A stretch of 64,000 nt of DNA from Escherichia phage vB_Eco-B1.1: sequence record ON871820; one strand, 5' to 3'. Of the stretch, positions 17,248 through 18,476 are shown in pieces. The notes below the pieces were generated by a model. That model made no database searches. It saw only the letters and a program-made list of their open reading frames with translations, and was not told the DNA's origin. Within the stretch, counting starts at the first letter, position 1. Every line of letters starts with the position of its first letter. The translations under genes were made by a program, and so were the position numbers.

Positions 17248-18279
17248 ATGTCATCAATACCTTGGATTGATAATGAGTTTGCGTATCGTGCATTAGCTCA
17301 TTTACCTAAATTCACACAAGTAAATAATAGTTCAACTTTTAAATTACGGTTTAGATGCCCTGTTTGTGGAGATTCAAAAACCGACCAGAATAAAGCTCGT
17401 GGATGGTATTATGGTGATAATAATAATGAAGGAAATATTCATTGTTATAACTGTAACTATCATGCACCAATCGGAATATATTTAAAGGAGTTTGAACCTG
17501 ATTTATATCGTGAGTATATCTTTGAAATAAGAAAAGAAAAAGGTAAAAGTCGTCCAGTAGAAAAACCTAAAGAACTTTCTAAACAACCTGAGAAGAAAAT
17601 AATTAAATCTCTTCCGTCATGTGTTAGATTAGATAAACTGACGGAAGACCATCCAATTATAAAATATGTAAAAGCTCGTTGTATTCCAAAGGATAAATGG
17701 AAATATCTTTGGTTTACAACTGAATGGCCTAAATTAGTTAATAGCATAGCACCAGGAACATATAAAAAGGAAATACCTGAGCCTCGTCTTGTTATTCCAA
17801 TTTATAATGCTAATGGAAAAGCTGAGTCTTTTCAAGGACGTGCATTAAAGAAAGATGCTCCTCAAAAATATATCACCATCAAAGCTTATCCTGAGGCAAC
17901 AAAAATCTATGGAGTCGAACGAGTTAAAGATGGTGATGTATATGTTCTAGAAGGACCTATAGATTCACTTTTTATTGAAAATGGTATAGCTATTACGGGT
18001 GGTCAATTAGACCTAGAAATTGTTCCATTTAAAGATAGACGTGTATGGGTTTTAGATAATGAACCTCGTCATCCTGACACTATTAAACGAATGACTAAAT
18101 TGGTTGATGCAGGAGAAAGGGTTATGTTTTGGGACAAATCTCCCTGGAAATCAAAAGATGTTAATGATATGATTAGAAAGGAAGGTGCAACCCCTGAACA
18201 AATTATGGAATATATGAAAAATAATATTGCACAGGGGTTGATGGCTAAAATGCGGTTATCTAAATATGCTAAGATTTAA
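17248..18279 (+). CDS. 61: gp61 DNA primase
   Basis: 343 aa; zinc ribbon CPVCGDS...CYNC; TOPRIM region. Confidence 0.95.
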   Translation: MSSIPWIDNEFAYRALAHLPKFTQVNNSSTFKLRFRCPVCGDSKTDQNKARGWYYGDNNNEGNIHCYNCNYHAPIGIYLKEFEPDLYREYIFEIRKEKGKSRPVEKPKELSKQPEKKIIKSLPSCVRLDKLTEDHPIIKYVKARCIPKDKWKYLWFTTEWPKLVNSIAPGTYKKEIPEPRLVIPIYNANGKAESFQGRALKKDAPQKYITIKAYPEATKIYGVERVKDGDVYVLEGPIDSLFIENGIAITGGQLDLEIVPFKDRRVWVLDNEPRHPDTIKRMTKLVDAGERVMFWDKSPWKSKDVNDMIRKEGATPEQIMEYMKNNIAQGLMAKMRLSKYAKI

Positions 18280-18476
18280 ATTAACCCAACCAAAGCAAAT
18301 GCTAAATCTACGAATGTATCGAGAGTAATTACTGGAATATTAACGCCATGAGCAATAGCAATTGGTGATAAAACAAAATTCCAGAGTAAAATTCCTATCA
18401 TAGCAGAAATAGTAAAAGCTATACGTTTTTTATTACCTTTGATGGCATTAACAAGTGCCATTAATTTTTGTACCAT
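18276..18476 (-). CDS. small membrane protein on opposite strand
   Basis: 66 aa, two hydrophobic segments; strong RBS AAGGAGGA 6 nt upstream; AT-rich late-promoter-like TATATAAA upstream on minus strand. Confidence 0.45.
   Translation of the reverse strand: MVQKLMALVNAIKGNKKRIAFTISAMIGILLWNFVLSPIAIAHGVNIPVITLDTFVDLAFALVGLI

Follow-up and report, generated by a model that had tools for sequence, protein, structure and literature searches.

We analyzed a window of 64,000 nt from Escherichia phage vB_Eco-B1.1 (ON871820), which is part of a Tequatrovirus (T4-like) genome, with a focus on a 66-codon open reading frame (ORF) on the minus strand between the primase gene 61 and an HNH/NUMOD3 homing endonuclease gene (Table 1). 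A preliminary description had placed a reverse-strand ORF of this length there, antisense to the early genes, and its coordinates, ATG start and neighbors were all confirmed. The surrounding genes on the plus strand are gene 41, dmd, 61.4, sp, 61.2, 61.1 and gene 61, followed by HNH/NUMOD3, gene 56 and soc. Indeed, in a greedy gene map, the focal ORF is the sole minus-strand gene in positions 1-43036, against about 70 genes on the plus strand. The convergent 4-bp overlap of its stop codon with that of gene 61 was also detected in T4, RB69, ST0, VR25 (second copy), IME281 and CF1, and the convergent arrangement abutting the 3' end of gene 61 was found in T4, RB14, RB68, RB69, ST0, VR25, IME281 and CF1.

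Table 1. Features at and around the focal ORF, and other genes of the window referred to in the text
Feature	Position	Strand	Remarks
sp	16160-16453	+	2 kb from the focal ORF
Primase gene 61	17248-18279	+	phrog_47
Focal ORF	18276-18476	-	ATG, 66 aa and stop; MVQKLMALVNAIKGNKKRIAFTISAMIGILLWNFVLSPIAIAHGVNIPVITLDTFVDLAFALVGLI; phrog_2024 member
Convergent stop-codon overlap, focal ORF and gene 61	18276-18279		4 bp
C-terminal tail	18279-18350	-	HGVNIPVITLDTFVDLAFALVGLI; codons 43-66; invariant G44, P48 and G64; net acidic, marginally hydrophobic
Predicted transmembrane helix	18351-18422	-	IAFTISAMIGILLWNFVLSPIAIA; codons 19-42; invariant W32, N33 and P38
Terminator-like hairpin and T-run	18439-18470	+	hairpin 18439-18464; about 160-190 nt past the gene 61 stop; within ORF codons 3-13
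Shine-Dalgarno site	18481-18488	-	TAAGGAGG, then ACAT, then ATG at 18476
Late-promoter-like motif	18499-18506	-	AATAAATA; T4 gp55-type -13 to -6 box, A(-13) variant; ends 22 nt before the ATG
HNH/NUMOD3 homing endonuclease gene	18547-19197	+	
Gene 56	19199-19717	+	
soc	19800-20045	+	
Minus-strand gene block	43037-53564	-	holin t and tail-fibre genes
Holin t	43040-43693	-	in the late minus-strand block

We then examined the coding status of the ORF. Chance ORFs of 60-100 codons are frequent in the AT-rich DNA of the window, and the focal ORF is distinguished from them by its codon-position substitution pattern, its conservation across genera and its expression signals. Among 10 Tequatrovirus copies, the 24 variable sites were distributed over codon positions 1, 2 and 3 as 8, 2 and 14; 14 of the changes were silent, the replacements were nearly all exchanges between I and V, and the mean dN/dS was about 0.14. 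Furthermore, the indels were in frame (65 aa in Mosigvirus and 63 aa in the variant P0025), with the frame length kept at 63-66 codons across genera, and both the GC content and the third-position AT content of the ORF matched those of the adjoining primase gene. These comparisons indicate that the ORF is a genuine protein-coding gene under purifying selection.

The ORF product matched the phrog_2024 profile with an E value of 8.2e-31 (residues 2-66 against profile positions 1-65 of 65). All seven representatives, from six genera, also matched this profile; the PHROG annotation of this family is 'unknown function'. By tblastn, a copy was found in 692 phage records, always adjoining the primase gene, with identities of 90-100% in Tequatrovirus and 48-54% in Mosigvirus and Gaprivervirus. 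Within Tequatrovirus, about 500 records contained the ORF at 90% identity or more, compared with 501 containing the primase at 95% or more, and the gene appears to be effectively universal in this genus. Outward synteny also identified positional homologues on the opposite strand just past the primase in Dhakavirus (66 aa, with an overlap of 4 bp), Moonvirus (65 aa, likewise with an overlap) and Jiaodavirus (63 aa, separated by an 18-bp gap without overlap), with 18-27% identity to the window protein. Two divergent subfamilies were found in another 122 and 165 records, among them Karam-, Gelderland- and Kanagawavirus-type phages, to give a total of about 980 Tevenvirinae records from at least six genera, with the gene in the same position. 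The residues W32, N33, P38, G44, P48 and G64 were invariant across the subfamilies, and the first five of them, as carried by the window protein, constitute the motif W-N-x4-P-x5-G-x3-P.

The gene upstream of the ORF varies, being dam in T4, gene 56 in RB68 and RB69, and the HNH gene in the window, and the ORF was present in all of these. It was not found after the primase in Slopekvirus, Krischvirus and Pseudotevenvirus, nor in Yersinia phage MHG19, in which a homing endonuclease gene abuts the primase. In Gaprivervirus VR25, both subfamilies occur in tandem, and the second copy has decayed in TH40 and several relatives, suggesting that the two copies are functionally redundant. Judged from these comparisons, the gene is near-universal in Tevenvirinae, with three subfamilies, and it was present in most of the genera examined.

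The gene is not new, as it is already catalogued as a hypothetical T-even gene, under the names RB69ORF029w and RB32ORF030w in the Karam-lab genomes and dam.1 in the T4T record. The window protein is 92% identical to the T4 copy and 100% identical to the copies in Salmonella phage F13076 and Escherichia phage ECO4. The window gene shares its length, position, tail-to-tail orientation with gene 61 and upstream signals with Dam.1, RB32ORF030w and RB69ORF029w, and no substantive difference was detected; the upstream neighbor differs, and the Shine-Dalgarno spacer is 2 nt shorter than that of T4. Hundreds of records list a 'hypothetical' protein, and the cluster member names are all 'hypothetical' or 'uncharacterized'. 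In the T4 records NC_000866 and AF158101 and the original X01416, the 310-bp dam-61 gap is left empty, even though T4 carries an intact ORF at 17738-17938, and the annotations of JS98, JS10 and IME08 also lack it.

We next consider the signals upstream of the ORF. The preliminary description had ranked its ribosome-binding site among the strongest in the window, and indeed AAGGAGGA is unique in the window, while AAGGAGG occurs three times, once before holin t with the same 4-nt spacer. The spacing had been given as N6, but this is the spacing in T4; in the window, 4 nt separate GGAGG from the ATG, or 3 nt when counted from AAGGAGGA. AGGAGG or AGGAG was kept upstream in all of the genera examined. 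The gene would thus probably be translated efficiently from TAAGGAGG-N4-ATG.

The match to the T4 late consensus TATAAATA before the ORF was AATAAATA, which would place the transcription start near 18493 on the minus strand. The locus thus contains a box of the TATAAATA type about 6 nt upstream of the predicted start and near the gene, as in T4-type late genes. A late-promoter-like sequence had been reported here previously, and a conserved motif does precede the gene, but the element quoted at that time, TATATAAA (18493-18500), was the wrong one, and it is AATAAATA that fits the consensus. Among 50 T4 late promoters, 32 carry TATAAATA and 9 carry A at -13, the commonest T4 variant (PMC2988020), and relatives often have A or T at this position (PMC1524935). 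In the window, WATAAATA is depleted, with 11 copies against 24.8 +/- 5.2 expected in shuffles, with further copies located 18-34 nt upstream of soc, t, gene 36 and gene 34. Furthermore, NATAAATA at -20 to -30 was kept in Tequatro-, Mosig-, Gapriver-, Dhaka- and Jiaodavirus, amid diverged upstream DNA. The Moonvirus copy has a degenerate box only, and the second Gaprivervirus copy, which has no box, is evidently co-transcribed with the first. Since the box is depleted elsewhere, precedes known late genes and is kept together with the Shine-Dalgarno site across five genera, we infer on good grounds that the gene is transcribed late from its own gp55-type promoter. The RB69 late-promoter HMM scan by Nolan et al. 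gave no site before RB69ORF029w, though AATAAATA is present there, and no late promoter was called at the ORF in the fPS-2 annotation. In the literature on T4 Ribo-seq, transcription start site mapping, antisense transcripts and unannotated ORFs, the gene was unmentioned, and no transcript, footprint or protein evidence was found.

We then addressed the nature of the product. Two stretches of it are hydrophobic. The first, at residues 19-42, is strongly so, with a Kyte-Doolittle value of about 2.0 for a 19-mer and a Wimley-White octanol score of -11 kcal/mol; for the family as a whole, this core scored between -5 and -11 kcal/mol in every member. The second, at residues 47-66, is marginally hydrophobic (Wimley-White -2.0) and contains D53 and D57; across the family, the C-terminal 19-mer ranged from -2.2 to +0.9 kcal/mol and carried Asp, Glu or Pro. 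In every subfamily, the basic residues before the core amounted to +4 to +6, while those after it numbered 0 to +1, together with 0 to 2 acidic residues. AlphaFold2, run on a 7-sequence alignment (pLDDT 74.7), predicted helices at 2-13, 16-42 and 52-62, and for the RB69 orthologue, TMHMM gave one transmembrane segment at 21-41 and SignalP 3.0 was negative (PMC1524935, Additional file 2). The composition, the charge distribution, the AlphaFold2 model and the TMHMM result on the RB69 orthologue thus point to a small inner-membrane protein with its N-terminus inside. In agreement with the small membrane protein of the preliminary description, the product is almost certainly membrane-inserted; of the two hydrophobic segments noticed at that time, both exist, but the second is not a confident transmembrane helix, given the single segment in the RB69 orthologue. 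The best-supported model is a single pass with the N-terminus inside, in which the Lys-rich, partly amphipathic residues 1-18 would be cytoplasmic and the 24-residue acidic, hydrophobic tail would lie at the periplasmic face. The invariant residues W32-N33, P38, G44 and P48 are concentrated in the outer helix half and in the turn that follows. An invariant Asn in a transmembrane helix typically drives helix-helix association.

Searches for a function gave little beyond the family itself. Pfam, NCBIfam and PADLOC at permissive thresholds yielded nothing consistent, and the PADLOC defence and counter-defence models gave no match at E <= 1 for three family members. A COX7B match of one member (E 0.028) was dismissed as noise. 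A Tequatrovirus/Mosigvirus profile, when compared with 1.84 billion representative proteins, returned six matches only, all of them family members or truncated versions, and thus provided no bridge to a characterized family; similarly, a word-indexed search of 5.8 billion proteins returned 33 matches, all from the same family. The sequence profile search of PDB and the Foldseek search against PDB gave chance-level matches only, and Foldseek against BFVD retrieved family members only, including a 63-aa Karamvirus protein at 28% identity. No link to a function was found in the literature.

The explanation that best accounts for these data, and that we regard as probable, is that the ORF is the orthologue of T4T dam.1, RB32ORF030w and RB69ORF029w, and encodes a late, efficiently translated, single-pass inner-membrane protein lying tail-to-tail with gene 61. 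Late in infection, RNA polymerase would start from the gp55-type promoter AATAAATA near 18493, the message would be translated efficiently from TAAGGAGG-N4-ATG and would probably continue antisense into gene 61, and the product would reside in the inner membrane with a cytoplasmic N-terminus, one helix at 19-42 and the tail at the periplasmic face.

A small hydrophobic protein with two hydrophobic stretches, whose late-promoter and Shine-Dalgarno layout is identical to that of holin t (AATAAATA, AAGGAGG-N4-ATG), could itself be a holin or pinholin of the two-segment class II type, or an antiholin that sets the lysis time. As in T4 holin T and in class II holins or pinholins (e.g. S21 68), the focal protein is predicted to be a small inner-membrane protein with its N-terminal segment in the cytoplasm. 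However, class II holins have two transmembrane segments, whereas the focal protein has one confident segment; its second hydrophobic segment is marginal, with acidic residues or prolines, and the C-terminal helix in the AlphaFold2 model spans just 11 residues. The protein also lacks the hydrophilic, charged C-terminal tail, as it ends in ...DLAFALVGLI with no basic residue past position 18. No holin family in Pfam or PHROGs was matched, all members matching phrog_2024 only, and no endolysin or spanin gene adjoins the ORF, its neighbors being the primase and HNH endonuclease genes. Thus, neither the N-in/C-in topology with two segments, nor the charged tail, nor a family match or lysis-gene adjacency was found. 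The labels 'Holin' and 'putative holin' do appear for OE5505 (UniRef) and Klebsiella phage KP1079, but these are 2 of about 980 records and are unvalidated. The phage, moreover, already carries a canonical holin T, which has a large periplasmic domain that is absent from the focal protein and shows no sequence or profile similarity to it, and loss of T alone abolishes T4 lysis. Taking both sides into account, we consider it distinctly unlikely that the protein is a holin or an antiholin.

The same observations bear on the suggestion in the preliminary description that the gene is tied to lysis timing or exclusion. We found no support for this suggestion: there was no holin, antiholin or spanin match, no charged tail and no linkage to lysis genes, and T4 lysis genetics is not known to have pointed to the locus between dam and 61. 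Nor did the window provide examples of the generalization behind it, according to which small membrane genes in reverse orientation often influence lysis or exclusion in T-even phages, because sp points the same way as the early genes and t lies in the late minus-strand block. The T4 RI antiholin, Imm and Sp are likewise small, envelope-targeted proteins specific to T-even-type phages, without sequence similarity to the focal protein. Sp in the window, like its homologues in relatives, is oriented with the early genes, unlike the focal gene, and Sp is made with a cleavable signal peptide and forms a soluble domain in the periplasm, which sets it apart from the predicted single-pass product.

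The late signals and the membrane location would also suit a membrane-anchored helper of late morphogenesis, for example one that acts with gp20 and gp40 when proheads are initiated at the inner membrane, and the gene is labeled 'putative head morphogenesis protein' in T2 and T6. This label, however, was transferred automatically, in a record where neighboring genes are plainly misnamed: gene 41 is called 'major capsid protein' and gene 61.1 carries the same 'head morphogenesis' label. The protein has no similarity to any assembly protein and the gene no linkage to head genes, so that a morphogenetic role as the main explanation is improbable.

In another reading, the N-terminal 42 residues would serve as a Sec signal peptide, the cleavage of which would free a 24-residue hydrophobic peptide (HGVN...VGLI) into the periplasm. 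The layout does resemble n-, h- and c-regions, in that Pro occupies -5 and small residues occupy -3/-1 ahead of the invariant G44, and an AxA-like pattern precedes G44 in most subfamilies (AIA|HG, ALA|HG, AAS|QG and ALA|YG). On the other hand, the hydrophobic stretch of about 24 residues has the length of a signal anchor, as compared with 7-15 for the h-region of a signal peptide, and AlphaFold2 modeled 16-42 as one continuous helix. The negative SignalP 3.0 result for the RB69 orthologue, the Thr at -1 in two subfamilies and the Leu at -3 in Mosigvirus also count against cleavage, which we regard as very improbable; the uncleaved single-pass protein is the preferred form.

The ORF overlaps RNA from both directions, and the RNA could therefore be considered as the main product, acting antisense to gene 61 and the upstream early messages, with the peptide incidental. 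A plus-strand terminator-like hairpin, annotated as a terminator in Yersinia phage fPS-2 and present in T4, lies inside the ORF, so that the early gene 61 transcripts should cover most of the ORF antisense, extending past the gene 61 stop as far as about codon 3. In the opposite direction, no minus-strand terminator was found downstream of the ORF, and the late transcript thus probably runs antisense into gene 61. Early and late RNAs would accordingly overlap across most of the ORF, and there are T4 sites at which both strands are known to be transcribed, at different times (PMC2988020). Nevertheless, an RNA product does not account for the bias toward third-position changes, the dN/dS of 0.14, the indels that keep the frame, the strong conserved Shine-Dalgarno site or the residues that stay invariant at 18-27% identity, and we consider it highly improbable as the main product; an antisense effect may exist in addition to the protein. 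As for the hairpin itself, a role as a conserved dual-use element was rejected, since it was seen in Tequatrovirus only. We also make no claim for translational control by the hairpin, because folding of the mRNA around the start codon was no better than that of shuffled sequence (z = -0.6).

Finally, the comparative data already refute the view of the ORF as a spurious frame in a non-coding terminator/promoter spacer or as cargo of the neighboring HNH mobile element, for which the unannotated 310-bp dam-61 gap in the classical T4 records, the abundance of chance ORFs and the plus-strand terminator inside the ORF might speak, since a spurious frame is contradicted by the purifying-selection signature and the cross-genus conservation, and cargo by the presence of the ORF in phages without HNH at the site (T4, T2, RB68, RB69, ST0 and IME281), in which the DNA match ends where the HNH gene starts (query 1-442).

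With the late single-pass membrane protein as the preferred reading, its function can be approached only as a guess of low probability, in which modulation of lysis or lysis inhibition would be the likeliest role and that of a morphogenetic helper the next. The in-membrane Asn next to Trp and the P-x5-G-x3-P turn might mediate helix-helix association, either as self-oligomerization or as docking onto a conserved membrane partner. The protein might thereby modulate a late envelope event, for which control of the lysis machinery of holin T, RI and spanin is the leading candidate and membrane-bound prohead initiation the second. In a broader and, in our estimate, unlikely form of this proposal, the Dam.1 family would be an overlooked core component of the late T-even membrane, which tunes holin T, RI and spanin or lysis inhibition, or anchors prohead initiation. 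If so, its role would have escaped notice for decades, owing to the omission of the gene from the T4 reference and to the overlap of its stop with the essential primase gene.

Within the window, this is an ordinary conserved hypothetical gene, and the by-products of its analysis are the gap in the T4 annotation, the near-universality of the family with its three subfamilies, and the conserved late-gene signals. As it is missing from the T4 reference annotation on which they rely, proteomic, transcriptomic and CRISPRi screens would have left the gene unscored. It is nevertheless one of the most conserved uncharacterized T-even genes, found in essentially every Tequatrovirus, and its wide presence across Tequatrovirus and the Tevenvirinae genera argues for a real contribution to fitness. 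A knockout could expose a new late-phase membrane player in the best-studied lytic phage.

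We compared the late signals of the minus-strand ORF at 18276-18476 with those upstream of the holin gene t, and the two genes were identical in the late-promoter variant, the Shine-Dalgarno sequence and the Shine-Dalgarno spacing. The same variant, AATAAATA, also lies 23 nt upstream of a GIY-YIG-type homing endonuclease gene of phrog_314, which suggests that this mobile gene is expressed late. Furthermore, WATAAATA, the late-promoter word, shows a marked depletion over the whole window, with 11 occurrences observed against 24.8 +/- 5.2 expected from 100 dinucleotide-preserving shuffles, all of which (100/100) contained at least 11. 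Such a shortfall would fit a model in which stray late promoters are selected against. One perfect TATAAATA is located on the minus strand within the early-gene block, and no minus-strand ORF led by a Shine-Dalgarno sequence was found downstream of it; this site could act as a late promoter in antisense, or the match could be due to chance.

On the early strand, a terminator-like hairpin, present only in Tequatrovirus, is embedded in the minus-strand ORF, within its first 13 codons, and the opposite-strand early and late transcripts should thus overlap across most of the ORF. The neighboring HNH/NUMOD3 homing endonuclease gene occupies the position where T4 carries dam, and no dam homologue was detected anywhere in the 64-kb window. 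The sequence immediately 5' of its start, TGAATTGAAAGGA, is similar to the DNA that precedes gene 56 in Mosigvirus and Gaprivervirus, as though the endonuclease gene had integrated immediately in front of gene 56.

Coordinates of the features discussed (window positions unless another genome is named)
Feature	Genome	Position	Strand	Details
Terminator-like hairpin	window	18439-18470	+	
HNH/NUMOD3 homing endonuclease gene	window	18547-19197	+	GTG start
TATAAATA	window	29889-29896	-	inside + strand ORF 29824-30195
Upstream region of holin gene t	window	43694-43719	-	AATAAATA, 6 nt, AAGGAGG, 4 nt, ATG
AATAAATA box	window	59504-59511	+	
GIY-YIG-type homing endonuclease gene	window	59535-60272	+	
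66-codon ORF	T4 (locus L002)	3739-3939		NC_000866 17738-17938
Tandem paralogues	VR25 (Gaprivervirus locus L004)	2495-2692 and 2701-2901		
Paralogue region	TH40 (locus L005)	2700-2920		

In Gaprivervirus, two paralogues of the phrog_2024 family are arranged in tandem, 9 bp apart, the first of the T4 type and the second of the Dhakavirus type. In TH40 the second copy has decayed, and in VR20, SP18, RZ and TH57 it is matched only in part; this pattern suggests a duplication followed by differential loss. The product names of the T2 record AP018813 are visibly mis-transferred over the whole locus, with gene 41 labelled 'major capsid protein', 61.4 labelled 'DNA primase/helicase', and both 61.1 and the orthologue of the minus-strand ORF labelled 'putative head morphogenesis protein'; these labels should not serve as functional evidence.

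Finally, T4 itself has the 66-codon ORF intact, in the 310 bp that separate dam from gene 61. It is named dam.1 in T4T (HM137666), and it carries no annotation in the reference records NC_000866 and AF158101 or in the 1984 entry X01416. The ORF would escape screens that rely on the reference gene list.
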